In this document: positions 743-30,260 of the stretch, piece by piece
Numbering within the stretch: the first letter of the stretch is position 1
Layout of the letters: each line of letters starts with the position of its first letter
Virus record (IMG/VR): IMGVR_UViG_3300037317_000075
Location: 1 to 32,235 of that record
Source: a virus
Reading direction: 5' to 3' (one strand)
Length of the DNA: 32,235 nucleotides
Position numbers and translations under genes: made by a program
Notes under the pieces: model-generated
Seen by the model: the letters and a program-made list of their open reading frames with translations, nothing else
Told to the model about the DNA's origin: nothing
The model's database searches: none

Positions 743-3124
743 CTAGGCTTTCATCTGGAGGTACTTGACAGCGGTGGCGTCAACGACACGGCTGTCCATT
801 CGGCGATACCAACGGAAGCCAATCTGCCCCTTGCCCGAATAAAGTTCATCCAGACGCTTCATCTCCATCCCGGCAAAATCAGCAATCCAGAAGCGGTCAA
901 GGTTAGCGAAGATGAGCACCTTTGCACTGGCATCGACGCCGGGCACACCGTCCATCGTGTAGACCATCTTGCCCATCAGCTGGTCGGGCGCATCAGCGGT
1001 CAGCGACGGCGACCAGAGCGGATTGCCGAAGCTGTCTTTAATCTTCCGTAGCGCGCCGATGGTCGTATCGTTGGTGATAAACACAGCGCGCTGCCGGTGA
1101 AAGCGGTTCAGCGAGTAGACGAGGTTGACAATGTCGTCATATTCAATCGTCGCCTTCGTGCTGGTCGCGCCGAGCGTGCCACCAGTGAGCAAGCCCTGTG
1201 GCTCGCTACCCCCACCGCCGGTCAGAAAGACGGTGTTCTCAGCGTCGGCAAAGCCCTGCACCGCATCGGGCACAATGACATTTTCGACCACAGGGAAGCG
1301 ACCATCAGCGAGCAACTCATCACTGACCTTGACCAGCTTTGTGTACTTGTAGGGCGAGAAGATGACCTCGCCGAGCGACGGTGCATCAGGGGTGTAGTCG
1401 CCCTCCTCGCGGGTCAGCATGGCAGCACCACTGTTGCTCATCGTCGGCACGCTGAACTGTCGTGTGCCGCTCAGCGTAATCTGCCGGGCCCCAGCCAGGC
1501 GCAGTACGCTCTGCTGCTCTTGCAGCGTCAGGATGAGTTCGCCGCTGTAGGTGTTCGGCACCAGCACGCCGCCCTCGGTGCCCACATCTTCTTGCAGGTC
1601 ACGCACCGCCAGGGCACCATTTCGCACATAGGTATTGAACCGGCGAATACTCCGCTCTTCGTCAGTCATCTCTGGCTCCGATGTGATAATGCCACCCTCG
1701 CCGCGAGGCGCAGGCGCGCCGCGCATTTCGTCGAGTTGCGAGCGCAGGGGGGCAATCTGCTCATTCACAACGTCCGTGAACAGGGCCCGCATACTGGCCG
1801 AGTCCATTGCTGCGGTTGACGCAGGCGGCGCGGCCTGCGGTGGCTGTGCAGGCGCAGCAGAAGCGGCGGGTTGCGCCGGGGCCTGCTGCTGCTGGCGGGT
1901 CGGCGGCGCGTGCGGTGCATCCTGCGCCGGTGCGCCCTGCTGCTGCTGACCCTCTTGCGTGATGTTCTCTTCTTCCACTGCGGTTCCTCCACTACTGCTA
2001 CTGCGATGCGGCGCCCGTTGCGCCGTCTGCGATTCCGACACAAGATGCACGCCGAGCGTGCGCGGCTCAGCGGGGGTTGGCGTCAGACTAAACTCGATAA
2101 TCGGCCATTGCCGGATGGTGATGTTGTCTTCAGCCATCCGGACGAGATGCGCGGCGCTGCCTGACGACCAACCAAGCACCCCCCGGTTAATCAGGTCAAG
2201 CACATAGTCCATATAGTTGGCATGGCGATTTAACTGCGCCTCAATCCAGAGGCCATCGTCGTTTGGCGTTGCTTTGACGACGACGCCGAGGCTATGCTCT
2301 GGCGGGCCGGTCATTGTGTGGTCATAGTAGACCGGCAAGACACTGCCACGGATGAAGGGCCCGAAGTCGGTAGACGCCTCAAAGCGCGTGCCGTAGAGGT
2401 CTTGCCCTCCGAAGCGCACGCCATACCCGCCGACCGTGATGACATCAGGCGTCTCGCTGAGCACCCGCACAGCACTGCCGGTCAGTGCTCGCCTCGCCTG
2501 CGGAAGCGTGTCGGGCTGCGTCGGGTTGGTCACTGGTACATACTCTCGCGTCACGCGCTGCCAGGCATCGCGGTCTGCTACTGTGACGCTATCATCCTCA
2601 TTGACTGTCCAGGGAATGCGCCAGTACTGGTCGTTGACCGTCTCCTGGATGATGACAACCTGCTCAATCGGCAGCACCGTTTCAATGTAAAACGGGGCAG
2701 CACGCATGTCGTCAATCCAAATGTCTGCGGTGCCGAAAATGTCTTCCAGCGCAATGCGGATGCGGCTGGATAGGTCTGACATATCGAGCGACCGGGCCGG
2801 TGGCGGCATATCAGGTTGTGTCGGGTTGGTCACTGGTACATACTCCGGCGTGACGCGCTGCCAATCGAGCCTCGGTGCAATGGTGATGCTGTCATCCTCG
2901 TGGGCTGTCCAGGGGATACGCCAGTACTGCCTGCTCTGCTGGTTATAAACAATCGCCGCCGCCTCAAGCGGCAGAATAGCATGGACGCTATAGCGCGCAG
3001 GGTCAAGGTCTTCATCGCCGCCCAGCACTTCACCCAATGCCTCTCGCACCCGACCAGAGAGGTCATAGCTCGGCAGCGACCGGGCCGCGCCGTCTTCGAC
3101 TGTACCGTTGCGGTGTCTTGCCAT
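743..3124 (-). CDS. Prohead protease / Q-A-P-rich linker / HK97-fold major capsid protein fusion, with a duplicated N-terminal domain
   Basis: 793-aa ORF. Residues ~16-212 are two ~100-aa repeats (YWRIPWT..EDDS.T....WQRVT.EYVPVTNPTQPD). The middle part (GYGVRFGGQDLYGTRFE...LGWSSGS) resembles HK97-type prohead proteases. A low-complexity Q/A/P linker follows. The C-terminal ~320 aa (LRLAGARQITLSG...SPYKYTKLVKVSDELLADG...GFRWYRRMD) resembles HK97-family capsid proteins. Confidence 0.8.
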   Translation of the reverse strand: MARHRNGTVEDGAARSLPSYDLSGRVREALGEVLGGDEDLDPARYSVHAILPLEAAAIVYNQQSRQYWRIPWTAHEDDSITIAPRLDWQRVTPEYVPVTNPTQPDMPPPARSLDMSDLSSRIRIALEDIFGTADIWIDDMRAAPFYIETVLPIEQVVIIQETVNDQYWRIPWTVNEDDSVTVADRDAWQRVTREYVPVTNPTQPDTLPQARRALTGSAVRVLSETPDVITVGGYGVRFGGQDLYGTRFEASTDFGPFIRGSVLPVYYDHTMTGPPEHSLGVVVKATPNDDGLWIEAQLNRHANYMDYVLDLINRGVLGWSSGSAAHLVRMAEDNITIRQWPIIEFSLTPTPAEPRTLGVHLVSESQTAQRAPHRSSSSGGTAVEEENITQEGQQQQGAPAQDAPHAPPTRQQQQAPAQPAASAAPAQPPQAAPPASTAAMDSASMRALFTDVVNEQIAPLRSQLDEMRGAPAPRGEGGIITSEPEMTDEERSIRRFNTYVRNGALAVRDLQEDVGTEGGVLVPNTYSGELILTLQEQQSVLRLAGARQITLSGTRQFSVPTMSNSGAAMLTREEGDYTPDAPSLGEVIFSPYKYTKLVKVSDELLADGRFPVVENVIVPDAVQGFADAENTVFLTGGGGSEPQGLLTGGTLGATSTKATIEYDDIVNLVYSLNRFHRQRAVFITNDTTIGALRKIKDSFGNPLWSPSLTADAPDQLMGKMVYTMDGVPGVDASAKVLIFANLDRFWIADFAGMEMKRLDELYSGKGQIGFRWYRRMDSRVVDATAVKYLQMKA
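2489..3079 (-). repeat. Intragenic tandem duplication (~300 bp x 2) encoding the repeated N-terminal domain of the protease-capsid fusion
   Basis: DNA blocks such as gtcgggttggtcactggtacatactc..cg.gt.acgcgctgcca occur at ~2517-2565 and ~2817-2865. The two protein repeats align over ~100 aa. Confidence 0.85.
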
Positions 3125-3352: not shown

Positions 3353-3585
3353 TCACGGATACCCGGGGGCTGGGAAAGCCATTACGCGCAACGTCTGTTC
3401 AAGGCCCCACTTAGCACGACGCTGACCCCCAGGTATCTTTGCGATAGCGCGTGCGTCTCCGATTTCGCTTGTTGCCGTCGAGGATGCCGGGAAAACATCA
3501 TACACAGAGAGGATGCTTCTTTGTTCCGACTAGGGTCAATTCCCCTTGTTGACGGGCACCCTATGACGTGCCCACGGCTGCGCTA

Positions 3586-3804
3586 TCAATCCCCCCCATT
3601 GTACACTATCCCTTCAACGAGCGCAAGCCCCTGTACCCCTTGCGTGTCGCGGAGAAGGGCCAGGAACTCTTGAATAGTGATGGATTGCCAGAGGTTCTTC
3701 CCGTGCCACCGCACCTTGAAATTCAGTGTGCCTGTGTCGGTGTCAACGTAGCACAGCGGCGCGATGTGTTCTTCCCCCTGAAGCGGAATGCGATTGCCTT
3801 GCAT
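3586..3804 (-). CDS. Small hypothetical protein translationally coupled to the tail fibre gene (possible fibre chaperone)
   Basis: ATG at 3804..3802 overlaps the tail-fibre stop TGA (3806..3804) as ATGA. 72 aa. No family recognised. Confidence 0.5.
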   Translation of the reverse strand: MQGNRIPLQGEEHIAPLCYVDTDTGTLNFKVRWHGKNLWQSITIQEFLALLRDTQGVQGLALVEGIVYNGGD

Positions 3805-5114
3805 CAACTCAACGTCTCCACTACTTGCACTTTGAGTACCTGCAACGTCCCGTCGCTGAGCACCTGCGCGACCTTTGTCCCCGCAGGCGCGTCATAGATT
3901 TCCAACAGCGATGCGGTCTGACCGCTCGTGCCTGTGACTGTGACAGGCACCATCCCGGCAGCGCTACTGCTCACGGAGGCATCCTGCTCAGGCAGCGCGC
4001 CGATATCGCCGGGGGCCAGGGGGTCACTGCCGCCGGTGGCATGCTCAGCAGCATGCGCGGGAAGGTCGCCAGGAACCAGTGCTCCGAACGCGACCGTGGC
4101 GGCCCCGGTTGCGCGTAGCACATGCCCACTGGTGAGTGTTGCAATCGCCGGGTAGAGGTCGAGCTTGGCCTTATCGCCGGAAGGCATAAAGCCATTCGCT
4201 CCGCTGGTCGCCGCCGCGTGCAAGGTGCCCCCTCCCCGGTCGCCGTGTACCGTATCGTCTATCTCTGGTAACTCGGCAGGGGTTAGCGCAGCGCTGGTCA
4301 CGTTGCCGCTCGCGTCACTTTGAAGCACCCCGGCAGCAAGCCCTGATACCTGAAGCGCCACGAGAATAGCCTTTGCGCTGGTCGTGTCCACTGCGAGCAC
4401 ACTCACCCCGGCGTCAGTCTGCACATCAAAGGCAGCAGCGTTGTTCACCGCGGGCTTGACGAGCACCTGGCTCAGCGCCAACCAGAGCGCTGCGCTATTC
4501 GGGGATACGTTGTCATCCTGGATAGCGCGCAACGTCCCGTCAAGGCTCTGTCCATCAGCGAGCTTGAGGTTTTCGACGCCTCCGGTTGCCGGAGCCGTGG
4601 GCGTCCACTGCGCCCCGTCCCATCCAAGAAGCTGCCCTGATGACGGCGCGCTGCTATCCACGTCGCGTCCCTGCAAGCGCACGACCGTGTTGCTCGCCGT
4701 GGTGCCAGTCACGTCACCGCTCAGTGTCGCGCCGAGGGTCTGCAATACCCACTGCCCCGCGCCGCTCGACCAGACATAAATCTGGTTGTTCGCGGGCGCA
4801 TCAGTGGTCACGCTGCGCCCTTGAATATAAGTTGCGTCCCGATACCCGGCAGGCATCCGCGCCTCGGCAATGGTTCCGGCAGTAATCTGGCTGGCATCGA
4901 ACGCGGCGCTGCCCAGGTCGGTCAGGCGGAGAATATCGTTCGCTGCTGCGGGCGCCGATGACACCTGCACCGCAGTCGTGCTGAGCAGGAGTGGAGTAGG
5001 GGTGCCCTCACCATCCTCGACCGCTGTGGGCGTGGCATTGGCCCCATCCGCGTTGGGCACCTGCAAGAGCCGCATGTACGTATCTTTGATGTTACTTCCA
5101 GCCAGTGTTCCCAT
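3804..5114 (-). CDS. Tail fibre / receptor-binding protein
   Basis: 436-aa G/A/T/S-rich ORF with N-terminus MGTLAGSNIKDTYMRLLQV. The HAAEHATGGSDPLAPGDIGA motif is of the kind common in phage fibre proteins. Confidence 0.65.
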   Translation of the reverse strand: MGTLAGSNIKDTYMRLLQVPNADGANATPTAVEDGEGTPTPLLLSTTAVQVSSAPAAANDILRLTDLGSAAFDASQITAGTIAEARMPAGYRDATYIQGRSVTTDAPANNQIYVWSSGAGQWVLQTLGATLSGDVTGTTASNTVVRLQGRDVDSSAPSSGQLLGWDGAQWTPTAPATGGVENLKLADGQSLDGTLRAIQDDNVSPNSAALWLALSQVLVKPAVNNAAAFDVQTDAGVSVLAVDTTSAKAILVALQVSGLAAGVLQSDASGNVTSAALTPAELPEIDDTVHGDRGGGTLHAAATSGANGFMPSGDKAKLDLYPAIATLTSGHVLRATGAATVAFGALVPGDLPAHAAEHATGGSDPLAPGDIGALPEQDASVSSSAAGMVPVTVTGTSGQTASLLEIYDAPAGTKVAQVLSDGTLQVLKVQVVETLS

Positions 5115-5311
5115 TACTCACTCCCTACGCTTCCGCCATAGCTGCCGCCCGTCGCCTGTCCAGTCCAGGCAGGCCCGACAACAAGCCTCCCGGTCGGCTC
5201 AGTGGTTGTCGTACTCGCGCACGGCCCATCACTGCTCTCCCAGGCATTGGGCGCAGTATCCCAGGCGCATTCGGCGGCGTCCCAGGTCACAATGCGCGCT
5301 CCACAGTCCAC
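5114..5311 (-). CDS. Small hypothetical protein between the LamG protein and the tail fibre
   Basis: Its stop overlaps the tail-fibre ATG (TAATG). The likely true start is GTG at 5290, forming GTGA with the upstream stop. The track start at 5311 is also GTG. Confidence 0.4.
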   Translation of the reverse strand: MDCGARIVTWDAAECAWDTAPNAWESSDGPCASTTTTEPTGRLVVGPAWTGQATGGSYGGSVGSE

Positions 5312-6396
5312 TCAGTCATAAAGGTCATTTCAATATGTGCCTCGAACGTCGCAATGAACTGTACCTGGAACGTTCCGGCGTGCTCAACGTCCACGGCGCT
5401 ATACTGCCAGATAAAACGACCTGTCGTCGGGTCGTCGTCGATGGGTAATGTGCCGGTGATGGTGCGCGCCGGTGCGAACTGCGGACGAATCACCCCGCTC
5501 AGCACCGCCCCGGTCAGGTCGAGGGCCGCGCCGCTCTTTGTCCAGGTGATTTGCTGGTAACTCCCGGCTGCCCCCTGCACCGCACGCGCCAGGCCCTCTG
5601 CGGTTTCGCTCACGCTGACTGTCAGCGCGGGGGTGCTGTAGTCGCGCCGGTCGCGCTCGCTCTCAATGTCTGCCTGCTCTAGCGCGCTGTCATACAGCTT
5701 TACATCGACCAGGTATCCGATGAGATACTGGTTTGATGAGAGGTTCACTGACTGCCCCGCCAGCAGCGCGCTGACGGCGCTGCTCGGCCAGGTATACGCC
5801 GAGGGCGCGTTGATGACCTGCGTGGTCGGACTGGTGGCATCGATGGGCCCATAGATGAAAAACGTGGCCGCGCCGCTCCCCCAGGTCACAGCCAGGTGAT
5901 ACCAATCGTTGTCGTTGTCTGTGGTGTCGAAGTCGTGATAGAGCACGTCTCCATTGACCCCATCAGCGGTCGCCGCGAGTTGCAACCGCTTCACCTCCGG
6001 CGTGGCTCCGCCGATGGCGTTGGGGTCAGCATCTTTGTATTCGTAGAGCACCTGGAGAAACGCTGTGCCGTCGGTGATGTACAGCACCACCCCATCCTGG
6101 TCGGTGGTTGTTTCGTGGGCAGGATTCGTGTTGTCTGCCGGGGGCCGAAACCAGACCATCAGGGTTCCGGCGTCCATTGTGCTGCTGAGCCCGCTCGCGT
6201 TGCTGCTGCTGAGCAGGTCTACATACGCATCAGTGCCGTTCAGCAGGACACTCAGCACATCGGGGTCAGTCGAGGGGCTCGCGGCCTGGCCGAGCGTCGG
6301 CGTACCCACATAGACCCCTGGGGCGCTCCCCAGGCTATCCGCAGCGGTCGTGCCGCTCTGTTCGTTCAGTCTGTACCAGTGTAATGGTGTGGGCAT
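5287..6396 (-). CDS. LamG / concanavalin-A-like lectin domain protein (tail or baseplate associated)
   Basis: The 369-aa N-terminal pattern is typical of Laminin-G_3 phage tail proteins: HWYRLNE.SGTTAADS.G...G.Y.G....G......D...S..LNGTDAYVD...(MVWFRP). Confidence 0.6.
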   Translation of the reverse strand: MPTPLHWYRLNEQSGTTAADSLGSAPGVYVGTPTLGQAASPSTDPDVLSVLLNGTDAYVDLLSSSNASGLSSTMDAGTLMVWFRPPADNTNPAHETTTDQDGVVLYITDGTAFLQVLYEYKDADPNAIGGATPEVKRLQLAATADGVNGDVLYHDFDTTDNDNDWYHLAVTWGSGAATFFIYGPIDATSPTTQVINAPSAYTWPSSAVSALLAGQSVNLSSNQYLIGYLVDVKLYDSALEQADIESERDRRDYSTPALTVSVSETAEGLARAVQGAAGSYQQITWTKSGAALDLTGAVLSGVIRPQFAPARTITGTLPIDDDPTTGRFIWQYSAVDVEHAGTFQVQFIATFEAHIEMTFMTEWTVERAL

Positions 6397-8030: not shown

Positions 8031-8802
8031 CCCGTACCGCTCGTCCGCGTGTTCGGTGCCTTGTCGGGTCGGGGGAAGGTCGGGAGCGCTCTGTGTCGGT
8101 GTCGGCAGCGTTACCATTGGCCTCAAGAACGGACTCCGTTTCGTCATCGGCAGCAGGCTCAGCAGCAGTATCGTCGCTGTGCGTAGGCGCGTCGTCATCG
8201 GTGTCGTGGGCATTGCCGTCTCCTTCGTCTGGTGCCAACGCTGACCGCATCAGCGCAATGGCCTCGCGGAGCACTGCCCGGTCTTCGTCGTCATCCTGGC
8301 TCGTTGACCGCATTGCGTCTTCCAGGTGCGCCAGGCGCGCCGCGAGTTCAGTTTGTCGCTGCTCGTGCTGCATGCGGTCAACCTGCTGTTCGATGCGCAG
8401 CAGCCGAACGGCATCGTCGGGCCCCTGCTGTTCGATGCGCAGCAGCCGAACGGCATCGTCGGGCCCCTGCTGACCAGAGGCGTCGTCGTCGTCGGTAGCA
8501 TCAGGCTCCGGCGCGGGCGGCGCAGCAGCCTCCTCGACCGGCACATCGAATCCGTTGATAATCAGTGCTATCGCTGGGGGCACACCGCTCTGTATCGCGT
8601 AGCGTACCAGGAACAGGTTCCCCAGGCGCGCTCGCTGCTCCTCAGTGAACGTCATCTGCGGCGCGGCAACCTGCTCGCTCAGCGCCTCCATTGCATCCAT
8701 CAGCGTATCAAGGATATCAGATACGTCTTCGGGGGAATAGCGCTCGCCAACATCAGGCAGTGATGGCCCCGTCCCGTTCCCGTTGTTCAGTGGGTCGCTC
8801 AC
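7969..8802 (-). CDS. Acidic, coiled-coil scaffold-like protein
   Basis: Start proposed at GTG 8802 with AAGGAG 6 nt upstream, inside the portal 3' end. An alternative is ATG 8700. The protein is D/E-rich with heptad-like segments and an exact 14-aa duplication. Its position after the portal is typical of scaffold genes. Confidence 0.45.
   Translation of the reverse strand: MSDPLNNGNGTGPSLPDVGERYSPEDVSDILDTLMDAMEALSEQVAAPQMTFTEEQRARLGNLFLVRYAIQSGVPPAIALIINGFDVPVEEAAAPPAPEPDATDDDDASGQQGPDDAVRLLRIEQQGPDDAVRLLRIEQQVDRMQHEQRQTELAARLAHLEDAMRSTSQDDDEDRAVLREAIALMRSALAPDEGDGNAHDTDDDAPTHSDDTAAEPAADDETESVLEANGNAADTDTERSRPSPDPTRHRTRGRAVRDERTDAGGAGDEGEPAEPVQ
8383..8466. repeat. Perfect 42-bp tandem duplication inside the scaffold-like gene
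   Basis: ctgctgttcgatgcgcagcagccgaacggcatcgtcgggccc occurs at 8383-8424 and again at 8425-8466. It encodes QQGPDDAVRLLRIE twice. Confidence 0.95.
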
Positions 8803-10360
8803 GGCGTACTCCTTGCAATCGCTCGGCCAGCGCTCTGGCGCGACGTGCCTGCGCGCTGGTTCCTCTTGCTGCTGGCCCATCCATCGCGGTTCGCACCCCT
8901 GGCACCTGCGCCAGCGCCAGTCCCACATCGAGGGGCAGTCCCGCATTGGTCGCCGCTTGCAGCACGGTCAACGCCGCGGTCACTTCGCGGCGCTGCTCAT
9001 CAGCCGTTTCGTCTTCGGGGGGCAGCCCCAGGCGCTCGCGAGCTTCGTTGCGCTTCACCGTGCCTGTCTCAATGTGATAGCCCAGGATATCAGATTGTGT
9101 GCGCCCCCCGGCCTGCATCTGCTCCTCAACGGCAGCAATGGCCTCCTCCGAAAAGCCGAGCCGCTTCAGCGCATAGACCAGCGGCAACCCCCGGTCAACC
9201 AGGGGCACCAGGCTCGCTGTCTCGGCCACCTGCGCCGCCTCATACGCTTGCATCTCCTGGGGGCGCCATTCCAGGCGCATTCCGAACAGCGCAAAGAACT
9301 CGTTCAGCGGCCTGCGATAATGCGCGTTCACATGAGGCACAATGGTGTGGTGCGTGAAATGCCACTCATCAACACTCGCGTTCGCATAGGTTGAGGCGTT
9401 GCTTTCCAGGAGGCTCTGCGGAATGCCGAAAGCAGCAGCAATGTCTGCACGGTTGATGCTGGTCAGGTCGGGCGCCGCGATGTCTTTGGGGCTCGTGCCG
9501 ACCTCGTGTGGCACAAAGTTATAACGCATCGCCATCGTGTTCCAGGCCCGTCCGACCCCGCCGGTCATGCGCTTCCAGAACCCGACAATGCCCTCAAGCT
9601 CTTGCTCGCTCGGTTGCGGCGTCATCCCGGCCCCGGTATTGCGCGTGTCCAGGAAGAACAGCACCGATTTTAGCGCGCCCTGCATGAAGAAGCGGCGCGT
9701 GTAGCGGCCCAGGTGATACAGCGTCTCCGCCGCGAACTGCGCCGCGTGCGCGGGGCCCACCCCCGGCCCGTCTTCGGCATCCAGGTTCATCGACCAGAAG
9801 TGGATAATGAATGCGTTGTTTGTGCCAGGATAAGAAGCCCCGCTGTTTCGGTTCTGATACGCAGGGTAGCTCTTGTTGGCCCCTCCGAATCGGCGAACGA
9901 AGTGCGTGAGTTCGCCGTTCTTGTTGTACTTCGGGGTGATGCTCTTCGGGAGCAGGCGCCGCGGGTAGTAGTTCCAGCCGTGTCGATTCGGTGTGACCAG
10001 CCAGTAAGCACTGCCCGTCGTTGCCAGGTCGCCTTCGGTGATGGCTAAGAGTTCCTTGAGGTCATCGGCCCACCGCTGATACTCTGCGCCTTCCCGGTCT
10101 AGTTCAGTGGGCCCCCGGCTCAGCGCGAACGGCAGCGACGCCACTGCACCGGCGCGCAAGGCCACAGCTCGGTGATACCACGCCACCCGGCGATATAACT
10201 CTGCCGGTGAAACCGTTGGCCTCGTGTCGCTGGCCGCGTCGCCGTCGCCCTGGCCGAGCAGGTCAGCAGCAGCCGGGTCGTCTATGCCAACCCCAACGCT
10301 CTTGACCCGAACCCCCTGGCCCCGACCATCGTGCTCTTCTACATTGACAACGCGCAGCAT
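8753..10360 (-). CDS. Portal protein
   Basis: 535-aa ORF. The N-terminal region ELYRRVAWYHRAVALRAGAVASLPF and the overall size and layout are typical of the Phage_portal family. ATG has AGGGG upstream. Confidence 0.8.
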   Translation of the reverse strand: MLRVVNVEEHDGRGQGVRVKSVGVGIDDPAAADLLGQGDGDAASDTRPTVSPAELYRRVAWYHRAVALRAGAVASLPFALSRGPTELDREGAEYQRWADDLKELLAITEGDLATTGSAYWLVTPNRHGWNYYPRRLLPKSITPKYNKNGELTHFVRRFGGANKSYPAYQNRNSGASYPGTNNAFIIHFWSMNLDAEDGPGVGPAHAAQFAAETLYHLGRYTRRFFMQGALKSVLFFLDTRNTGAGMTPQPSEQELEGIVGFWKRMTGGVGRAWNTMAMRYNFVPHEVGTSPKDIAAPDLTSINRADIAAAFGIPQSLLESNASTYANASVDEWHFTHHTIVPHVNAHYRRPLNEFFALFGMRLEWRPQEMQAYEAAQVAETASLVPLVDRGLPLVYALKRLGFSEEAIAAVEEQMQAGGRTQSDILGYHIETGTVKRNEARERLGLPPEDETADEQRREVTAALTVLQAATNAGLPLDVGLALAQVPGVRTAMDGPAARGTSAQARRARALAERLQGVRRERPTEQRERDGAITA

Positions 10361-10424: not shown

Positions 10425-10483
10425 AAAAAGGCGGAGCCCCGAAAGGCCCCGCCCCGAAAAAAAGGGCGCATCAATGGATGCGC
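10425..10483 (-). terminator. Two tandem intrinsic terminators at the distal end of the CRISPR array
   Basis: The - strand shows GCGCAUC-CAUU-GAUGCGC + CC + U7 (10457-10483), then GGCGGGGCC-UUUC..-GGGGCUCCGCC + U5 (10425-10453). U tracts exist only on the - strand. Confidence 0.75.
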
Positions 10484-10532
10484 TTCCCATGTTGATTATT
10501 GCTCCGCAACGCCGGAATCGCAGCTATCATCA

Positions 10533-10863
10533 GTTGCACCCGCATTGCCCCACCAGATACCACTGCAACTTGCACGGCCCGGCGGCTATCTGCCCACTCG
10601 TCTGCGTTGCACCCGCATTGCCTCACCAGATACCACTGCAACCGCGACGACGGCGCATGAGTTTCGGCAGTTCGACCTGTTGCACCCGCATTGCCTCACA
10701 GGATGCCGCTGCAACGTCAAGTTGATGGCAACGTATCTCGCAAACAGACGAGGTTGCACCCGCATTGCCTCACCAGATACCGCTGCAACTCCGACTCAAA
10801 TGTGCAAGGGGCGCGGCGGAAACTGTGTTGCACCCGCATTGCCTCACCAGATACCGCTGCAAC
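10533..10863 (-). CRISPR. CRISPR array, five 37-nt repeats and four 36-37-nt spacers (type V-like repeat)
   Basis: Repeats lie at 10533-10569, 10606-10642, 10679-10715, 10753-10789 and 10827-10863. The + strand consensus is GTTGCACCCGCATTGCCTCACCAGATACCGCTGCAAC. R4 and R5 are identical; R1, R2 and R3 carry 2, 1 and 3 substitutions. Spacers on the + strand: ttgcacggcccggcggctatctgcccactcgtctgc; cgcgacgacggcgcatgagtttcggcagttcgacct; gtcaagttgatggcaacgtatctcgcaaacagacgag; tccgactcaaatgtgcaaggggcgcggcggaaactgt. The strand is inferred from the flanking promoter and terminators. Confidence 0.9.
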
Positions 10864-10918
10864 CCTGGGTAATTTTCGCCGCATTCCAATGCCTGAGAAC
10901 CAGGCTGTTTCGCAACTC

Positions 10919-11040
10919 GTTGCAGCATTCGATTGGCAATGTACGGGCGGGGTGTTCTTGTACTTCTTCACCCCGTTGGTTCGCAGTTCGTCGAGCAGAC
11001 ACGCTGCCCTCCCTGCGCTGACAGCCAAAGCACTTGGCCC
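10919..11040 (-). ncRNA. Candidate tracrRNA (scaffold module A plus anti-repeat), co-transcribed with or processed from the array transcript
   Basis: The TSS is inferred ~7 nt after the extended -10 at 11047-11055. The 3' part on the - strand, GCCCGTACATTGCCAATCGAATGCTGCAAC, is complementary to the - strand repeat GTTGCAGC...GGCAATGCGGGT in blocks of 8, 7 and 4-5 bp. Confidence 0.5.
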
Positions 11041-11055
11041 ATATCTATTATACCA
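10944..11055. repeat. Copy A of a 112-bp duplicated structured module (partner at 11291-11402)
   Basis: The copies are collinear without indels at an offset of 347 bp. The 49-nt core gttggttcgcagttcgtcgagcagacacgctgccctccctgcgctgaca is identical (10975-11023 vs 11322-11370). Overall identity is roughly 85 percent by eye. Confidence 0.95.
11047..11055 (-). promoter_or_regulatory. Extended -10 promoter (TGGTATAAT) for module A and the CRISPR array
   Basis: The - strand reads TGGTATAAT. The homologous position in copy B also reads as an extended -10. Confidence 0.5.
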
Positions 11056-11157
11056 GCTTTTCGCTGTTGCCTTCGGCTGAGATTGATGTCACTTGCACCC
11101 GGTCAATGCATAGCGATGCTGCGCCCGGATGTCGCTGCGCCCGTTGAGCGCCATTCT

Positions 11158-11279
11158 GTTGCCCCGACCAGCGAAGTCACTTTGCTTGCGCCCAATTGCT
11201 CACGAGATGTTGCCCCGACCAGCGAAGACTCATAGAAGTTGCCCCGCAGTGCAATCACTTCGTAGCCTCGTTGCTCACG
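11158..11279. repeat. Cluster of degenerate short direct repeats between the two scaffold modules
   Basis: gttgccccgaccagcgaag occurs at 11158-11176 and 11209-11227, and gttgccccg again at 11238-11246. The longer units 11158-11204 and 11238-11279 share gttgccccg...tcactt...ttgctcacg. On the - strand all end in GGGGCAAC, like the CRISPR repeat end GGGTGCAAC. Confidence 0.8.
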
Positions 11280-11284
11280 CTCTG

Positions 11285-11387
11285 AAAAAACGGGCAGGGT
11301 GTTCTGACACTTTTTCACCCTGTTGGTTCGCAGTTCGTCGAGCAGACACGCTGCCCTCCCTGCGCTGACACCCAGCGCACCTGGGCC
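11285..11387 (-). ncRNA. Candidate ~100-nt omega-RNA-like / tracr-like RNA (scaffold module B) directly 3' of the nuclease gene
   Basis: The extended -10 TGATACAAT (11394-11402) overlaps the nuclease stop codon. The RNA ends with the hairpin CAGGGUG-N14-CACCCUG followed by GCCCG and U6 (A-run 11285-11290 on the + strand). Confidence 0.45.
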
Positions 11388-11402
11388 AGAACCATTGTAT
11401 CA
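11291..11402. repeat. Copy B of the 112-bp duplicated structured module
   Basis: See copy A. The hairpin stem is AGGGTG/CACCCT here and GGGGTG/CACCCC in copy A (a compensatory G:C to A:T change), while the loops differ. Confidence 0.95.
11394..11402 (-). promoter_or_regulatory. Extended -10 promoter (TGATACAAT) for module B
   Basis: The - strand reads TGATACAAT. Its TGA is the stop codon of the nuclease gene. Confidence 0.4.
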
Positions 11403-12833
11403 CGACTTCGCACGCGGCTTATAGTTACTTCGTGCTTTGCGCTTCTTCCGCTCTTTCGGCTCGCGCCTGGCAATCTGCCGAGCCGCGTTGATGTCTACCT
11501 GGTTCGTTTCCCCGCACCCCTTGCATATCCAGGTGCGACTTGACCAGTTCATCTCCTGCCGGTGCCCGCAATGGAAGCAATCGGTGGTCGTATGTGCCGC
11601 GTCTACGGTCACGACCTCGCGGCCTGCTGCCCCGGCCTTTTGCCGGGTGAGTTCGCGCAGAGCCCCTGGTGAGGCCGATGCCATACTCCGATTGATATGC
11701 TGCTCGTGCTCGCGTGTCATATCGGCGGATTCACGCTCTTCGGCGCTCTTCTTGTGCCGCAACGCTGACCAGTCGGTGTCCTCGAACTTGATGGTATCTG
11801 CCGTGTCGCGCAACCTGTTCACCACATAGTCCTGGTTGTGCTTGCGCTGCCGCGCAACGCGCTGGTGCAGCCTTGCAATGCGCTGCTGGCGCCGCTGTGT
11901 GCGGTTGCTGGTCGGGTCGGCGGCTTTCGCGCCGTGTTCTTTGCCTTGCCGTTTGGCAGCGCCCTGCCGCCGCTTCAAGCGCTTCGGGTCAATCAAACGT
12001 TGATAGTGAGCCAGCTTCGCCGCACTCTGCTTCAGGCCATCGGGGACACAGTAGATACGCCCATCACTCACCGCCGCAACCTGCTGACCAGTGCCCACAT
12101 AGGCCCCGTTCAAGTCCACACCAATTGTATGTCCTGTCTCTGGCAACGGCTCCGGCGCGGCCTCGCGGCATGTGACATTCAGATACCAGCCATCTGCTTT
12201 CTTGACAATGCTGGTTGTGCGCATCTCTGCCTCGGCTGAGAAGGCCCGGTGATACCGGAAGCGCAGAGAGCCAAGCGTCCTCTTCGCGCCGTGCATCGTG
12301 AGTGCCGCGTATTTACCATCGACAACAAAGTCGCTCGGCTTCTTCGGGAAGTCGATGCCCACGTCGCTGGCCCGGTCTGCCCAGCGCGCCCTGGCGTCTT
12401 TGCGGGGTTTCTTGCCGGGGTTCGCCGCGTTCCATGCACGTCGGCGACGCGTCTCTATCTGTGCGTCGCCCCAGGCTTTCTCGACGCGCTCAATGAGCGC
12501 CGTCGCCGTGTCATACGGGAGACGCTTCCAGTGCATATACCGCTCATCATTGCGCCGCGCTGTGTACTCGGCGTTCTGTGCATACGCAGTCGGCTCATAG
12601 GTGCAATCAATGGGGGCTCGGTCGGGGCGCCATGTCGGGTCAGGGAATTGCAACCCGGCTGCATTCAACGGCAACTCTGCCCGCTCGAATGCTTCGCGGG
12701 TGCGCTGCGCGAACCGGCGCTGTTTAATGCACCAGCGCTGCAAATCGAGCAGCGTCTCCTGCCACTCGGCCAGCAGCGCTTCCTGCGCTGCGGTCGGATA
12801 CGCACGGTATTGATAGGTCTTCATCGTTGGCAT
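11400..12833 (-). CDS. TnpB / Cas12f-like RNA-guided RuvC nuclease (477 aa), candidate effector of the adjacent array
   Basis: The N-terminus KTYQYRAYPTAAQEALL is TnpB/OrfB-like. RuvC-I is IGVDLNG, RuvC-II is IKFEDTD, the zinc finger is CFHCGH...CKGCGE, and RuvC-III is QVDINAARQIA. A basic C-terminal tail follows. ATG at 12833 overlaps the upstream stop (TGATG). Confidence 0.85.
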   Translation of the reverse strand: MPTMKTYQYRAYPTAAQEALLAEWQETLLDLQRWCIKQRRFAQRTREAFERAELPLNAAGLQFPDPTWRPDRAPIDCTYEPTAYAQNAEYTARRNDERYMHWKRLPYDTATALIERVEKAWGDAQIETRRRRAWNAANPGKKPRKDARARWADRASDVGIDFPKKPSDFVVDGKYAALTMHGAKRTLGSLRFRYHRAFSAEAEMRTTSIVKKADGWYLNVTCREAAPEPLPETGHTIGVDLNGAYVGTGQQVAAVSDGRIYCVPDGLKQSAAKLAHYQRLIDPKRLKRRQGAAKRQGKEHGAKAADPTSNRTQRRQQRIARLHQRVARQRKHNQDYVVNRLRDTADTIKFEDTDWSALRHKKSAEERESADMTREHEQHINRSMASASPGALRELTRQKAGAAGREVVTVDAAHTTTDCFHCGHRQEMNWSSRTWICKGCGETNQVDINAARQIARREPKERKKRKARSNYKPRAKS

Positions 12834-13495
12834 CAAAGATACTCCTGGATTTCAGGGTCTATACCAAATGTCTCCGACGCGATTATTGCATTATCAGGCG
12901 GCGCCCTCTGGATAACCTGCGTGATATCCATATATACGCCGAATATCTCTTCATCCAGGTTCGCCCCCTGCTGCCCCAGCAGCGTGCTGGCCTTATCATA
13001 CAATCGCCGCAACGAATTGCCTACTGCATTCAGGCGATACGCAAGCCAGGAAACCTCGCTGTCATAGTCAAATATCTTCATCTTGAGATGCCGCCTACTT
13101 ACATCCAGATAGCAGACAAGCCACAGGAGTCCGTGCTTTTCGTATGGGCCAAACCACGCATGCTCGCTGAGGTATGCCTTATCAGGCGGCTCGTTGGGAC
13201 GTTCGAGGAGGTCAAAGAGACGCTGCTGAATGCTTCTCAGCGTCGTTTCTGACGTCTCTTCGTTCTCAGCGGGCTCGTAGAGCGTTCGGTATGTGTCTGT
13301 CTCAATCTCCTCCAGCTCCGCCCATTTGTCGAGCTGCGCGGCCAGCCATCGGGCAAGCCGCAGGTCGGTGCATACAAAGAGCTCATGGGTATCGCCCTGC
13401 CAGTCATGTTGAACAACCGCATACCCGTATGGTTCGTGACGTGTGAAATAGCTTTGTGAGGCCATGCTTCTATCCTTGTGGTTCGTGTGAGCCAT
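12833..13495 (-). CDS. Unknown protein, first gene of the nuclease operon
   Basis: 220-aa ORF translationally coupled to the nuclease gene. An alternative start is ATG 13465 with AAGGA upstream. The region 12840-13100 is visibly AT-richer than its surroundings. No motif recognised. Confidence 0.6.
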   Translation of the reverse strand: MAHTNHKDRSMASQSYFTRHEPYGYAVVQHDWQGDTHELFVCTDLRLARWLAAQLDKWAELEEIETDTYRTLYEPAENEETSETTLRSIQQRLFDLLERPNEPPDKAYLSEHAWFGPYEKHGLLWLVCYLDVSRRHLKMKIFDYDSEVSWLAYRLNAVGNSLRRLYDKASTLLGQQGANLDEEIFGVYMDITQVIQRAPPDNAIIASETFGIDPEIQEYL

Positions 13496-13560
13496 CGATA
13501 TACCTGGTATCTCCCTTCGTGGGCTCGGCGCATCCCCAGCGCCTCATCTCTTCCTTCTCT

Positions 13561-13589
13561 AGTCTACCTTGTTTATCGCGTCGTGTCAA
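13561..13589 (-). promoter_or_regulatory. Class I phage promoter copy P0 (TTGACA-17-TAGACT) driving the nuclease operon
   Basis: The - strand reads TTGACA CGACGCGATAAACAAGG TAGACT, with the same spacer signature as the early-cassette promoters. The conserved ACGAAGGGAGA RBS block follows. Confidence 0.6.
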
Positions 13590-13714: not shown

Positions 13715-15037
13715 CTACCCAAAGACGACCCCGGCCCCCCTGGTGCCTGCGTAGGTTTTCACGGCTAACCAGGCCAGAGCGAGGCTCATCACCTGGTCAT
13801 CGTGTTGCCCTTCGGGGTGCCCATAGCGGATAAGTCCCGATGGCAATCGCTCACTCTCGTAGGCCAGGAGTTCATTGATAAGCCCCTCGTCAGGCAGGAT
13901 GGCAAGCTGCTCAAGCTCGAAGGCTTGAATCAGACTATCAATGAGTATCTTCTTGCTTTGCGGCGATGTCCAGAACGGTATCACCGGGTAGCCCTTCCCC
14001 TGCAACTCTTCAATGTTCGGCCAGCCCATCGCGTTGGCCTCGATGACCAGGTGAGTGGCGTGGAATCGCTCATGCGCGCCGATGATGCGCGTGCGCTGCG
14101 TGGCATATTCGAGTTGTCTGAAACGGTCCAGGTACACCAGTTCATTCAGCGTCGTATCGATGACCGTCACGACGGTCCAGTCATCGGTGCGTGCCAGGTC
14201 TACGCCGATGATATACTGGTGGCCTTCAATGGCCCGCTCTTGCCACTCGGCATGGGCAGCCTCGCGCACCCGGTGAAAGACGGCGCCTTCATCTTCGAGA
14301 AACTGCGCGAATATCTCTTGTTGCAGGTCCCGCTCGGTCAGGTCTTCGGACAGGCTGTCTATCTCAGTCGGGTCAATGTGCGGATTCGTGTAGCTGCTCA
14401 TCTGCCAGCTTTGCCACTCGCTGCCCCGATACGGGTTATCATCGGCCCCTTTGCGATAGAGTTGCCAGAAGTAATCCCGGCCCCTGGGCGTCGAAAACCA
14501 CCAGCAGTCGCCAAGCTCATCCATCAACGTCGGACGCATGACCTGCTGCCAGGCCAGGCCCAGCTTCGTGACCTGCGCGGCTTCGTCAAAGACCACGCGC
14601 CGATAGTGCCGACCACGCGGGCGCTCTGGATACTCCATTGACCAGAGTTCGATAATCCCGCCGGTACGCAGCGATAATCGGTGGTTCTGCTCGCTCTTGC
14701 TGGCAATGTGTCCGGCAAGGAGCCCCTTCAGCTCGGTCCAGAACTCATTCATCGCCTTGTTGGTCGGGGCGCAATACGCCGCCCGGCCCCCACCGACATA
14801 CGCCGTTTCGCAGAGCAAACGCTTCGCCAGTTCGGTCTTCCCGAAACGCCTACCGAGCGCGCACACGTTGAAGCGGCGCGCCTCACGCAACACGCGCCGC
14901 TGCCCTTCGTGCAGGTCCAGCAACGGCAGGTCGTCGAGGTGTGCCTGGCGCGCCGTGGCAGGCGTCGCCGGGCGCCGCACTGTAAGAGGCGTCGTCGGGC
15001 GCCGAAGCCGTTGACTAGACTGCTTGACTATCGTCAT
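13715..15037 (-). CDS. terL: Terminase large subunit
   Basis: 440 aa. Walker A is GRRFGKTE and Walker B is RRVVFDEAAQ. The C-terminal nuclease-like half contains IGVDLAR and VIEANAMG. Confidence 0.85.
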   Translation of the reverse strand: MTIVKQSSQRLRRPTTPLTVRRPATPATARQAHLDDLPLLDLHEGQRRVLREARRFNVCALGRRFGKTELAKRLLCETAYVGGGRAAYCAPTNKAMNEFWTELKGLLAGHIASKSEQNHRLSLRTGGIIELWSMEYPERPRGRHYRRVVFDEAAQVTKLGLAWQQVMRPTLMDELGDCWWFSTPRGRDYFWQLYRKGADDNPYRGSEWQSWQMSSYTNPHIDPTEIDSLSEDLTERDLQQEIFAQFLEDEGAVFHRVREAAHAEWQERAIEGHQYIIGVDLARTDDWTVVTVIDTTLNELVYLDRFRQLEYATQRTRIIGAHERFHATHLVIEANAMGWPNIEELQGKGYPVIPFWTSPQSKKILIDSLIQAFELEQLAILPDEGLINELLAYESERLPSGLIRYGHPEGQHDDQVMSLALAWLAVKTYAGTRGAGVVFG

Positions 15038-15515
15038 CGTCGTAATCCAGAAGGGGCAGCAGGCGGTCCAGGTTCAGCGTGTGCGCTTCGAGCTCAGCGG
15101 CGACCTGGAAGGTTCGTAGCACCGTGTTCAGGGTTGCTACATTCAGCGGGAGCGACTTCGATTGCAGCGCTTCTGCGACCTGGGAGAGCATGGCCCGGCC
15201 TACTGCGTGCAACTCTTTGGCAGTCTTATTGTAGCGCTCCTGGTGGGCTTCGATTTCGCGGATATGCGCTTCGGCTGCTGCGCGCTGCCGCTGTCGGGCC
15301 AGGTGCGCGTCGTGGGCTGCGACACGCTGCTGCCAGTGATGCTGCGATGACCAGCGGCTTAACAGCTGTCTACTTTTGCCCAACTTTTGCCCAACTGCGG
15401 CCAGGCTGCGCCCAGGGCCCATCTCGGCATATGCCATGAACGCCTCGTGCGCCCTGGCGCTTTCGTTGGGGAGTCGCTCCAACGGAGTCTCAGGGTTCCA
15501 TGCCAGGTCAGTCAT
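15015..15515 (-). CDS. terS: Terminase small subunit-like HTH protein
   Basis: The HTH segment is GRSLAAVGQKLGKSRQLLSRWSSQHHWQQR, and the gene sits directly upstream of terL. ATG at 15515 overlaps the methylase stop (ATGACTGA). The track start at 15536 is TTG. Confidence 0.6.
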   Translation of the reverse strand: MTDLAWNPETPLERLPNESARAHEAFMAYAEMGPGRSLAAVGQKLGKSRQLLSRWSSQHHWQQRVAAHDAHLARQRQRAAAEAHIREIEAHQERYNKTAKELHAVGRAMLSQVAEALQSKSLPLNVATLNTVLRTFQVAAELEAHTLNLDRLLPLLDYDDDDSQAV

Positions 15516-16767
15516 CGTCTCGCTCGGCCAATTCAACGCACAGGCCCTCCGCCTCAGCGCGCTGCAACGTCACGTCCACATAGCGAGGCTCTATCTCTAT
15601 CCCGGCCAGCACACGGCGCAGGCGGTGCGCGGCGATAAGCGTGGGGCCACTGCCCAGGAAACCATCGAAGACCAATGCCCCCTCGTCGCTGCTCTTTTCG
15701 ATACAGCGCTGAATAAGCTCCACCGGTTTGGGGGTCAAATGCTCGGTTGCTGGGGGGCGCCCCGCTTGCCAGAGGTCCCGGTCGCGCTTGCCGCGCAGGG
15801 CGTGCCCTGGCCGAGACGCAAAGATACACACCTCCCACGACGGCGCATAGGTCGCCGTCGGGTCGCCTTTGCTGTACTCGATTTTGTCCCATACAATGAC
15901 GTTTCTGACCTTCTCCGGCAGCGCTTCTATCCACTTATGCATCACATCCCAGCGTGACCAGATGTACCACGCTTCTGCCGGAGGAAACGCTGCGAGCAGG
16001 CGGTGTGGCTGGGGCATGGCATCGTTTGCCAGGTCAGCGTGGCGGGGGCGCTCAATGTGCCGGTTGTAATTGATGCCATACGGGGGGTCGGTCACGACCA
16101 GCGCAACCGGCGCACCCTGCACCACGCGGGCAACCGCAACCGGGTCGGTACTGTCAGCGCAAAGGATGCGGTGTGTCCCATCGATAAGCCACAGGTCGCC
16201 TCGGCGCACCCGGCACGGCGCATCCTCGTCGGGGGCGAACCCATCACCCCCAGCCCCCGGCGCGGACTCTTCGTCGGCCAGCCCCAGCAGCAGGTCAAGG
16301 TCATCGCCAGACACTGACACCGGGAGTTCTTTGTGTTCGGCCAGGCCAGTCAACACATCAAGATACGCCGATTCATCCCATAGATTGGCGATGTCAACCG
16401 CAGTATAGGTGCCCCCGGCCAAGACCAGATTGTTGTGGTCAATGGCATACGCCTCTGCCGTCTCCTGACTCAAGGCATCCACGCCGAACAGCACCGGCAC
16501 CTGCCACTCTCCCTCAGCAATGCCCAGGCCCCTGGGCAGGTCGTGCCCCTGGGTCTGCATCCAGGCCAACGCCTCGGCGCGCCCATTGCCCTCGACCAGC
16601 CCTCCCTGGCCCGCATTCAATGCGGGCTCGTACTTGAGCGGGTCTTTGAACCCATACAACGCAATCGAGCGCGCAATGGCCCCCAGGTCGTGTTGCTTCG
16701 GGTTGCGCTCCCATTGCCGAGCCTGGCTGAGCGGAATATATCGCAGGGTCAATGTATCAGTCGTCAT
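15508..16767 (-). CDS. ParB-like nuclease domain fused to an N6A/N4C DNA methyltransferase
   Basis: The N-terminus WERNPKQHD is ParB/Srx-like. The catalytic motif IV is VTDPPYG, followed later by the SAM motif FDGFLGSGPT (beta-class order). Confidence 0.8.
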   Translation of the reverse strand: MTTDTLTLRYIPLSQARQWERNPKQHDLGAIARSIALYGFKDPLKYEPALNAGQGGLVEGNGRAEALAWMQTQGHDLPRGLGIAEGEWQVPVLFGVDALSQETAEAYAIDHNNLVLAGGTYTAVDIANLWDESAYLDVLTGLAEHKELPVSVSGDDLDLLLGLADEESAPGAGGDGFAPDEDAPCRVRRGDLWLIDGTHRILCADSTDPVAVARVVQGAPVALVVTDPPYGINYNRHIERPRHADLANDAMPQPHRLLAAFPPAEAWYIWSRWDVMHKWIEALPEKVRNVIVWDKIEYSKGDPTATYAPSWEVCIFASRPGHALRGKRDRDLWQAGRPPATEHLTPKPVELIQRCIEKSSDEGALVFDGFLGSGPTLIAAHRLRRVLAGIEIEPRYVDVTLQRAEAEGLCVELAERDDD

Positions 16768-29668: not shown

Positions 29669-30260
29669 GGCGCGCAACCTTGCAATAAAGCAGAAAAACC
29701 TTGTAAAGCGGCAACGCGGCCAGGTCCATCTGCATCTCTTCGACCGCTGTGTACCCTTCGTCGCGCCACATCTGCCAGAGCCCTGCTGAGAGCCAGTCAT
29801 AGGCTCCGGCCATGTAGCGCGCTTCCAAATAGTCAGCGTAGAGCTGGTTGTCAATGCGGTCGCGGATGAGCTTCAGTACCAGCGAGTACGCAGCGGCATA
29901 GCTCCGCACATCCAGCGGGGGCTGACCATACATAGCGCGGATGCCTGCGTCTGTTTCGAGCTTGAACCGCTTCGCGATGCCGCGCTCCTGCTCCGCATAC
30001 TCCTGGGCCAGCTTCGCCCAGGCGATGCGCGCCGAGGCCGCGTGCCCCAGGCGCGTCAGCACGTCTTCGTGCCCCTTCTGCAACGCAATATCCGCGGCTT
30101 TGCGTTCGCCAGCGAACGGGGCGCTGCCCAGGGTGCTCTCTTCGCGCCAGCGGTCGGACAGGGCAATGTAGAGCCGCTGCGCTCGCACTCGCGGCGTGGC
30201 CTGCTGCTGCTGAGGCTTCCCGCGCTGCCGGGCGCGGGGCGGGGGTGGTGCGTTGGTCAT
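29658..30260 (-). CDS. Hypothetical protein (200 aa)
   Basis: ATG at 30260 forms ATGA with the stop of the PAPS-reductase-like gene. Confidence 0.55.
   Translation of the reverse strand: MTNAPPPPRARQRGKPQQQQATPRVRAQRLYIALSDRWREESTLGSAPFAGERKAADIALQKGHEDVLTRLGHAASARIAWAKLAQEYAEQERGIAKRFKLETDAGIRAMYGQPPLDVRSYAAAYSLVLKLIRDRIDNQLYADYLEARYMAGAYDWLSAGLWQMWRDEGYTAVEEMQMDLAALPLYKVFLLYCKVARRVT

Follow-up and report, generated by a model that had tools for sequence, protein, structure and literature searches.

We describe a candidate RNA-guided nuclease system in a tailed-phage genome fragment, IMG/VR record IMGVR_UViG_3300037317_000075, which was analyzed over its full length as a complete JGI contig of 32,235 bp with 60% G+C and is referred to here as the window. 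Between the terminase and portal genes of this phage lies a cassette consisting of a gene for a 477-amino-acid (aa) TnpB-family nuclease, two copies of a structured RNA, and a CRISPR array. We consider it likely, with a probability of about 75%, that this cassette represents a type V CRISPR module that is encoded by the phage, descends from TnpB and lacks adaptation genes. An earlier note on the same DNA had drawn attention to the nuclease and the array, but missed the duplicated, conserved scaffold between them, which resembles a tracrRNA (trans-activating CRISPR RNA).

The array (10533-10863, minus strand; coordinates are those of the window unless a relative is named) was delimited by a repeat search. 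It contains five 37-nucleotide (nt) repeats, GTTGCAGCGGTATCTGGTGAGGCAATGCGGGTGCAAC as read on the minus strand, starting at 10533, 10606, 10679, 10753 and 10827 with a period of 73-74 nt, and four spacers of 36, 36, 37 and 37 nt, all of them unique. These features match the usual definition of a CRISPR array, in which three or more direct repeats of 23-55 nt are nearly identical and alternate with unique spacers whose length is similar and constant. The repeat search agrees with the earlier note on the number and size of repeats and spacers and on their lying on the same strand as the nuclease gene, and the distance from the nuclease stop codon to the first repeat, given there as about 540 bp, is 536 bp. 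The two repeats nearest 10864 are identical and the other three differ by 1-3 changes, which is the polarity that had been proposed for a leader on that side. We read the array on the minus strand, with each spacer 3' of ...TGCAAC, because the repeats decay away from 10864, because a candidate promoter lies on the 10864 side and terminators lie beyond 10533, and because the arrays of distant relatives lie on the nuclease strand. The terminators, also anticipated in the note, are two tandem intrinsic-terminator-like hairpins identified in a terminator scan (10483-10466 and 10455-10428, minus strand). In the published single-guide RNA (sgRNA) of Un1Cas12f1, the sequence GTTGCAGAACCCGAATAGAGCAATGAAGGAATGCAAC precedes the guide; this repeat (GTTGCAG...ATGCAAC) has 37 nt and the same termini as the window repeat, so that the likeness to Cas14a repeats proposed in the earlier note is borne out. 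Because the Un1Cas12f1 repeat stands directly 5' of the guide, it also fits the orientation assigned to the window array.

The linkage of nuclease and array is conserved across a wide range of divergence. Three clade members with 30-35% identity to the window nuclease (L125, L128 and L129) have arrays directly 3' of the nuclease gene on the same strand, each with 37-nt repeats, a period of approximately 73 nt, spacers of approximately 36 nt, and the termini GTTGCA...TGCAA[G/C]. There are five repeats in L125, a phage-like contig; three in L128, after which the contig ends; and eight in L129, a 75-kb IMG/VR viral contig. In practice, a Cas12 lineage is by convention defined through conserved linkage between effector and array (PMC10691335). 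Given that the linkage is maintained down to 30-35% identity, we assign the system to type V in the broad Cas12 sense. The first two repeats of L128 (2066-2231 of that locus) are only 55 nt apart, leaving a spacer of 18 nt compared to the usual 36 nt, which may reflect a deletion within the spacer.

The clade defined by these nucleases is rare. A HMMER search of 1.84 billion representative proteins returned 14,311 TnpB-superfamily matches, among which approximately 13 representatives score above 170 bits; the next scores, at about 137 bits, belong to generic TnpBs. No relatives were found in 185,579 GTDB species-representative genomes, and the 122 INPHARED phage records with a match contain only generic TnpBs with at most 29% identity. 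A 21-mer from the window repeat is absent from IMG/VR and from the GTDB genomes. A scan of metagenomes with a 17-mer was too unspecific, giving single chance matches, and the only locus with a double match, L031, contains a collagen-like coding repeat and not an array. In L125, a second, ordinary TnpB of 369 aa (1591-2700 of that contig) is encoded about 5 kb upstream of the array-linked 544-aa clade member, and thus array-linked and generic TnpBs coexist on one element.

Comparison with the large terminase (TerL) provides evidence for long residence in phages. The window TerL (13715-15037) and portal (8753-10360), both on the minus strand and identified by family matches, flank the cassette at the junction where the earlier note had located it. 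Between the window and L001, the TerL proteins are 69% identical and the nucleases 75% identical, and the L001 nuclease gene lies three genes after TerL. Between the window and L129, both identities are 35%, and the L129 cassette is the immediate divergent neighbor of TerL. The nuclease therefore diverges in step with TerL while the neighborhood is retained, which is the opposite of the pattern of a recently inserted insertion sequence (IS). Such a pattern speaks for an RNA-guided nuclease module that has been domesticated and passed on vertically, and against a passive IS. As reported previously, adaptation genes and a transposase are missing: Cas1, Cas2, Cas4 and TnpA-type families gave no match among the 32 open reading frames (ORFs) screened, each against Pfam or PHROGs and most against one library only, with the nuclease and its upstream neighbor ORF220 the sole ORFs compared to all four libraries used (Pfam, NCBIfam, PHROGs and PADLOC).

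The nuclease gene (11400-12833, minus strand) was recognized as an ORF and by the NCBIfam guided_TnpB model. It encodes 477 aa from an ATG codon (MPTMKTYQYRAYPT), a start also called in five independent Logan assemblies; the JGI call has 474 aa and the ORF listing 478 aa from a TTG codon. All of the TnpB/Cas12 hallmarks that the earlier note enumerated are found in the translation (YRAYPT, GVDLNG, IKFEDT, CFHCGH/CKGCGE and VDINAARQI). In residue numbers that follow the 474-aa form, the RuvC residues D237, E348 and D444 and the zinc-binding cysteines C416, C419, C434 and C437 are invariant or at least 90% conserved in clade alignments, and on this basis the protein is expected to be a catalytically active nuclease.

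Family models place the protein within the TnpB superfamily without assigning it to a described branch. It scores 160.9 bits with NCBIfam NF040570 (guided_TnpB) compared to a cut-off of 100, with residues 4-454 aligned to model positions 1-389. The scores lie far below the cut-offs for NF038192 (C2c8/V-U2; 101 bits compared to 350, residues 186-424 only), IS200_TnpB (78 compared to 425), IS607_TnpB (41 compared to 350), and NF049972 (Cas12f2; 32.3 compared to 450). The PADLOC profiles for Cas12f, Cas12u2 and Cas12u4, which have no cut-offs and are unspecific, give 93-127 bits (at most 126.6 for Cas12f and 93 for Cas12u4). The earlier description of the nuclease as Cas12f-like is thus supported in the repeat termini and the RNA layout, but not in family membership. 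An AlphaFold2 (AF2) model of the nuclease has a mean predicted local distance difference test score (pLDDT) of 83, and its nearest folds in the PDB are the TnpBs of ISFba1 and ISDra2, with target template modeling (TM) scores of 0.73-0.79, followed by Cas12p, AsCas12f, Fanzor2 and LaTranC. In a single-sequence search, the best natural PDB match is entry 9J09 (E 4e-12), identified as RdCas12n (PMC12216341). A profile of the clade is about equally distant from RdCas12n (116 bits, full length) and ISDra2 TnpB (110 bits).

The structured RNA that follows directly after the nuclease stop codon is approximately 105 nt long, and its two copies in the window are approximately 84% identical. Copy B (11284-11388, minus strand), which scores 110.5 bits with a covariance model, ends with GCCCG-T6 (T-run at 11285-11290); the tracrRNA-like copy A (10937-11041, minus strand) scores 110.1 bits. 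L001, L002, L003, L004 and L127 have this element, too, behind the nuclease stop codon, and RNAalifold analysis predicts three stems, with compensatory changes in 8 of the 23 base pairs. The two window copies differ from each other at three paired positions, two in stem 1 and one in stem 3; pairing is retained in all three, and therefore both copies appear to be under selection. The covariance model, built from five scaffold copies, recovered truncated scaffolds that had been held out (65 bits for L004 and 23 bits for L002), and 80 generic phage TnpB loci gave no credible match, the only one being marginal at 14 bits (E 0.75). The scaffolds of L125, L128 and L129 were beyond the range of the model, and their homology was recognized by inspection of common motifs such as GCGCAGGGAGG...GAACTGCGAA. 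A scan of IMG/VR for the scaffold motif found only the L129 contig and two chance matches, and Rfam gave no family match in the island region, although no search was aimed at RAGATH-18.

Two arrangements of ORF and scaffold occur within the clade. In the long relatives L125, L127 and L129, the ORF extends across the homologous scaffold as far as the array, whereas in the short sub-clade to which the window belongs, a stop codon and a promoter-like motif are inserted between the ORF and the scaffold RNA. Proteins of the short sub-clade have 467-480 aa, compared to 533-561 aa in the database-called longer relatives and up to 597 aa for the L129 ORF. For the window phage and its close relatives (L211-L215, L001, L002 and L004), every Logan contig ends inside the scaffold RNA, just past the nuclease stop codon. 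These breaks are consistent with a tandem duplication of the scaffold, which would disrupt short-k-mer assembly; indirectly, this suggests that the duplication is common to the close relatives with broken contigs. As a consequence of the breaks, the arrays of L001, L002 and L004 are not seen.

The scaffold copies are preceded by candidate promoters. There are five occurrences of the extended -10-like motif TGNTAYAAT in the window, compared to 0.57 expected, at 10397, 11047, 11394 and 16919 on the minus strand and at 27289 on the plus strand, and those at 10397 (before the portal gene), 11047 and 11394 each lie just upstream of a logical transcript start. Based on this enrichment, we propose TGGTATAAT (11055-11047, minus strand) as a candidate promoter for copy A that would also serve the array through read-through, and TGATACAAT (11394-11402, minus strand), which overlaps the nuclease stop codon, as a candidate promoter of copy B. 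Each copy starts approximately 7 nt downstream of its motif, and the motif occupies the same spot upstream of the scaffold in L001, L002 and L004. The motif at 11055-11047 does bracket the array together with the terminators, as had been noticed, but it is better viewed as the putative promoter of the overlooked scaffold RNA. The terminator scan found no terminator-like site between copy A and the array, so scaffold and precursor CRISPR RNA may form one transcript.

A candidate anti-repeat, GCCCGTACATTGCCAATCGAATGCTGCAAC, was identified by cofolding at the 3' end of copy A (10917-10946, minus strand). Cofolding of copy A with the repeat yields a free-energy difference (ddG) of -13.3 kcal/mol, and the predicted pairs GCTGCAAC/GTTGCAGC, CATTGCC/GGCAATG and CCCG/CGGG cover most of the repeat. 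For copy B, the corresponding ddG is 0, and there is no anti-repeat to the array.

Upstream, the nuclease gene appears to be expressed as a phage gene. A sigma-70-like promoter, TTGACA-17-TAGACT (13589-13561, minus strand), matches the consensus at 10 of 12 positions and precedes ORF220 and the nuclease gene as a probable operon; related promoter blocks (CTTGACA..CGATAAACRAGGTAKACTAGAGA) recur at 22422, 21609 and 20049 on the minus strand and at 24474 on the plus strand. The leader and ribosome-binding site (RBS) block ACGAAGGGAG at 13511-13520 (minus strand) is typical of this phage, being one of nine copies in the window, eight of which lie on the coding (minus) strand. The promoter and RBS block that the earlier note had attributed to the phage therefore both belong to sequence families repeated through its genome. 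ORF220 (12833-13495, minus strand; 210-220 aa), directly upstream of the nuclease gene, has a stop codon that overlaps the nuclease start by 1 nt, and in the window the two genes are translationally coupled. Relatives of ORF220 are also encoded directly upstream of the nuclease in L002 (2290-2883, 41% identity) and L001 (8693-9979, 33% identity to the C-terminal half of the L001 gene), and the family contains the conserved motifs ARWLA..L..W and WLAYRLNA. ORF220 has no family match in Pfam, NCBIfam, PHROGs or PADLOC, its only homologue in a protein database search is an identical protein, and a single-sequence AF2 model was unusable (pLDDT 44.6). ORF220 might act as an accessory to the nuclease.

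From these parts we infer how transcription, RNA processing, pairing and cleavage might proceed, and against which targets. The phage consensus promoter would drive ORF220 and the 477-aa nuclease, and two extended -10 promoters would drive the two three-stem scaffold RNAs of about 105 nt, with copy A and its 3' anti-repeat being read on through the five-repeat array to the double terminator. The mechanism that we propose follows those of TnpB, Cas12f and Cas12n: the nuclease would bind the tracrRNA-like scaffold, and this scaffold would pair with a CRISPR RNA (crRNA) composed of the 3' part of the repeat (...GGGTGCAAC) and about 20 nt of the adjacent spacer. The resulting complex, if it resembles these systems, would find complementary DNA flanked by a protospacer- or target-adjacent motif (PAM/TAM) and cut it via a single RuvC site. 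Likely targets during infection would be competing phages, other mobile elements or the DNA of the host.

The stretch that separates the scaffold copies (11065-11283, minus strand) contains weak repeat-like units, detected by repeat scoring, that end in ...GGGGCAAC or GGGTGCAAG and are similar to the CRISPR repeat in its 3' half. Among them is a sequence of 20 nt, CTTCGCTGGTCGGGGCAACA, that is present in two exact copies, at 11157-11176 and 11208-11227 (plus-strand coordinates). The units score 28.5-31 compared to 24.6 +/- 2.8 for shuffled sequences (maximum 34.5) and are thus individually not significant. This region may be a decayed first array, or it may hold fixed guides of scaffold copy B.

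Several observations weigh against an interpretation of the cassette as a CRISPR module. The spacer search proposed in the earlier note yielded no protospacer for any window spacer in INPHARED phages, PLSDB plasmids or IMG/VR, the last scanned with the first 20 nt of each of the four spacers as a seed. The window array region as a whole gave only chance-level matches in INPHARED and PLSDB, the spacers of all four arrays match neither the window nor any related locus examined, and a search of phages with the L129 and L125 arrays found nothing. The IMG/VR scan returned two matches, both for one spacer and both ending after 21-22 nt; we regard them as chance, as they fall in unrelated genes (for the tail tube and another structural protein), on opposite strands, and with no common flank. 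In addition, there is no Cas1-Cas2 to account for spacer acquisition. The anti-repeat duplex of copy A is only about 1.5 standard deviations better than shuffled sequences, and the best anti-repeat sites in L125 and L128 are at most about 2 standard deviations better. For this reason, we refer to the anti-repeat as a candidate and treat it as suggestive. Finally, the second scaffold copy (B) lacks an anti-repeat. A similarity of 22 nt (82%) between a spacer (10800-10821) and the zinc-finger coding region of the nuclease gene (11507-11528) was also considered and rejected as chance, since it requires an indel, the reading frame differs, and other chance inverted repeats are equally good.

We weighed three other explanations. 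One is that the cassette is a homing or selfish drive, in which the guides would cut related phages without the cassette, perhaps at the junction of terminase and portal, and recombination during co-infection would copy the island into the break, as a phage version of the "peel-and-paste retention" logic of TnpB. This would be consistent with the TnpB ancestry, the fixed position beside TerL in three diverged phages, the absence of adaptation genes, the very short array with no matches to unrelated phages, and the second scaffold copy, which could serve a fixed guide in the absence of a matching repeat. However, none of the spacers has a match in L001 or in another related locus examined, no cassette-free relative was present among the loci compared, and the spacers are wholly different between loci, as would be expected for diversifying targets and not for one conserved site. 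We consider homing unlikely. It is also conceivable, but very unlikely in our assessment, that the protein is an RNA-guided DNA binder with a regulatory function, like Cas12m, Cas12c or TldR, that silences host or competitor genes or times phage expression. Repressors have evolved from small TnpB derivatives on repeated occasions (PMC10691335), and the absence of protospacer matches leaves the class of target open; nevertheless, the RuvC acidic residues and zinc finger that known repressor lineages have lost are invariant or at least 90% conserved in all aligned clade members.

The explanation to which we give the least credence is that an ordinary IS200/IS605-type TnpB happens to lie beside an unrelated or host-derived mini-array that uses a host Cas system. 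The protein does pass the generic TnpB model and carries the JGI annotation "putative transposase", and TnpB genes are frequent in phages, as the 122 INPHARED records indicate. Yet nuclease and array remain linked down to 30% identity, with repeat length and termini preserved, the scaffold RNA is clade-specific, and no tnpA was found in the 32 ORFs screened. The cassette also occupies the same locus in diverged phages, with divergence that parallels TerL, and neither copies in cellular genomes nor the repeat in GTDB genomes were detected. The earlier note had named as a warning sign a nuclease nested among common IS elements with host copies and TnpA; we found instead about 13 clade representatives, no GTDB relatives, no tnpA, and a relative in the same place beside a 69%-identical terminase. 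These results largely refute the chance-insertion explanation. A TnpB-derived type V module without adaptation genes remains our preferred interpretation.

Among described systems, the window system fits the adaptation-less, TnpB-derived type V-U/TranC class, with the V-U6-45 and TranC clades compared here by description. TnpB has been captured as a CRISPR effector approximately 50 times, and of the 40 "V-U*" branches, most have downstream arrays and no other cas genes (Altae-Tran et al., PNAS 2023, PMC10691335). TranC and Cas12n have been described as early stages of the transition from TnpB to CRISPR, and TranC as being guided by both CRISPR RNA and transposon-derived right-end RNA (reRNA) (Jin et al., Cell 2025, cited in PMC13565253). 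A phage-borne member, CauTranC9, has been reported with five repeats of 38 nt in a clade averaging 414 aa (TranC literature including bioRxiv 10.64898/2026.03.27.714800); TranC clades with numbers up to 24 appear in that preprint. Like TranC and V-U* systems, the window nuclease is TnpB-sized with a TnpB-like fold and a downstream array, lacks cas1, cas2 and cas4, and is associated with a short array (the median for such systems is about five repeats), repeats in the range of 32-38 nt, and a scaffold from the region 3' of the gene. The combination that defines TranC, in which a protein with the size and fold of TnpB is accompanied by a CRISPR array in a conserved manner, is thus present. In contrast, LaTranC, the only TranC with a solved structure, is distant from the clade (profile E 5e-16, C-terminal third only), and the clade of CauTranC9 differs in protein size (414 aa compared to 477 aa in the window and 533-561 aa in the database-called relatives) and repeat length (38 nt compared to 37 nt). 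In the TranC-related literature compared, there is no mention of two promoter-driven scaffold copies, of ORF-overlapping and ORF-separate scaffolds in one clade, of long residence beside TerL, or of an ORF220 partner.

Other type V systems share particular features with the cassette. Cas12n (type V-N, formerly V-U4; RdCas12n, 9J09) is a miniature effector with an A-rich PAM (5'-AAN) and the best natural PDB sequence match, and its tracrRNA overlaps a disordered C-terminal tail of the ORF (PMC12216341). A comparable read-through of the scaffold is seen in L125, L127 and L129 but not in the window, where the ORF stops first and the scaffold has its own candidate promoter; moreover, Cas12n is about as far from the clade as ISDra2 TnpB is (116 compared to 110 bits). 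Cas12f1/Cas14a (type V-F, Un1Cas12f1) has in common with the window the 37-nt repeat with GTTGCAG...TGCAAC termini located 5' of the guide, a tracrRNA between gene and array whose 3' anti-repeat (a candidate in the window) pairs with the 5' end of the repeat, and a protein in the 400-550 aa class. However, Cas14a.1 (7C7L) matches the clade only in the C-terminal RuvC/zinc region (E 1.8e-10), and the fold of the window nuclease is nearer to TnpB (TM 0.73-0.79) than to Cas12f (0.57-0.59). The resemblance to Cas12f is therefore one of RNA architecture and not of protein membership. With the TnpBs of IS200/IS605 and IS607 elements, which use omega RNA or reRNA, the window shares the TnpB model, the fold, and a scaffold that is encoded at the gene's 3' end or immediately behind it; it differs from them in showing no mobility signal, in its fixed phage locus and in having a multi-guide array as opposed to a single guide at the transposon end. 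We do not classify the cassette as an IS200/IS605 or IS607 transposon, as no transposase was found in the 32 ORFs screened, diverged phages have the cassette at one and the same locus, and GTDB genomes contain no copies, although no search was aimed at transposon ends. Cas12j (CasPhi) and Cas12l (CasLambda) are likewise phage-borne, single-effector type V systems without adaptation genes and are thought to serve inter-virus competition. These effectors are much larger (700-800 aa), are described as tracrRNA-independent, and are only remote matches to the window nuclease (E 3e-6 for CasPhi3; Foldseek TM 0.35-0.47 for CasLambda).

The remainder of the window and the related contigs encode additional functions. 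The major head protein is encoded by an ORF of 793 aa at 743-3124 (minus strand, family match). Matches resembling a head maturation protease at residues ~220-450 precede those to the major head protein at ~450-793, which suggests a fused protease-capsid gene. A protein similar to phosphoadenosine phosphosulfate (PAPS) reductase (phrog_424) is encoded both in the window (30257-31507, minus strand) and in L125 (718-1587). The window also encodes a DNA methyltransferase with a ParB domain (15508-16767) and, at the contig end, an ORF with the C-terminal domain of a sliding clamp (31799-32164). Just upstream of its terminase gene, L001 contains a gene for a 719-aa protein with radical S-adenosylmethionine (SAM) and TAGT/glucosyltransferase-like regions (3536-5695), hinting at DNA hypermodification in this phage group.

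The conversion of TnpB to a CRISPR effector is an established phenomenon that has been catalogued extensively since 2023, and the present case is an incremental but clean example. It adds a very rare and well-delimited clade of compact (477-aa) RNA-guided nucleases, and because scaffold, repeat, orientation and candidate promoters are mapped, the system can now be reconstituted and might become a small genome editor. Both states of the transition are found in the clade, a long form in which the ORF continues through the scaffold, as in TnpB and Cas12n, and a short form in which the scaffold has its own candidate promoter, and arrays accompany all forms. We speculate, as a tentative extension to which we assign clearly less than even odds, that the clade represents an unnamed, phage-restricted type V lineage inherited vertically beside TerL since a time before TerL identity among these phages had fallen to 35%. 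In one sub-lineage, the scaffold would have been freed from the ORF, provided with its own promoter, and duplicated, with one copy serving the array and the other a separate function, possibly with fixed guides or in homing. If so, the split of omega RNA into tracrRNA and crRNA and the separation of ORF and RNA would both have taken place within one small viral clade. The long maintenance of this system beside the packaging genes of a phage lineage bears on the idea that phages may be vehicles of the transition from TnpB to CRISPR (bioRxiv 10.64898/2026.03.27.714800).

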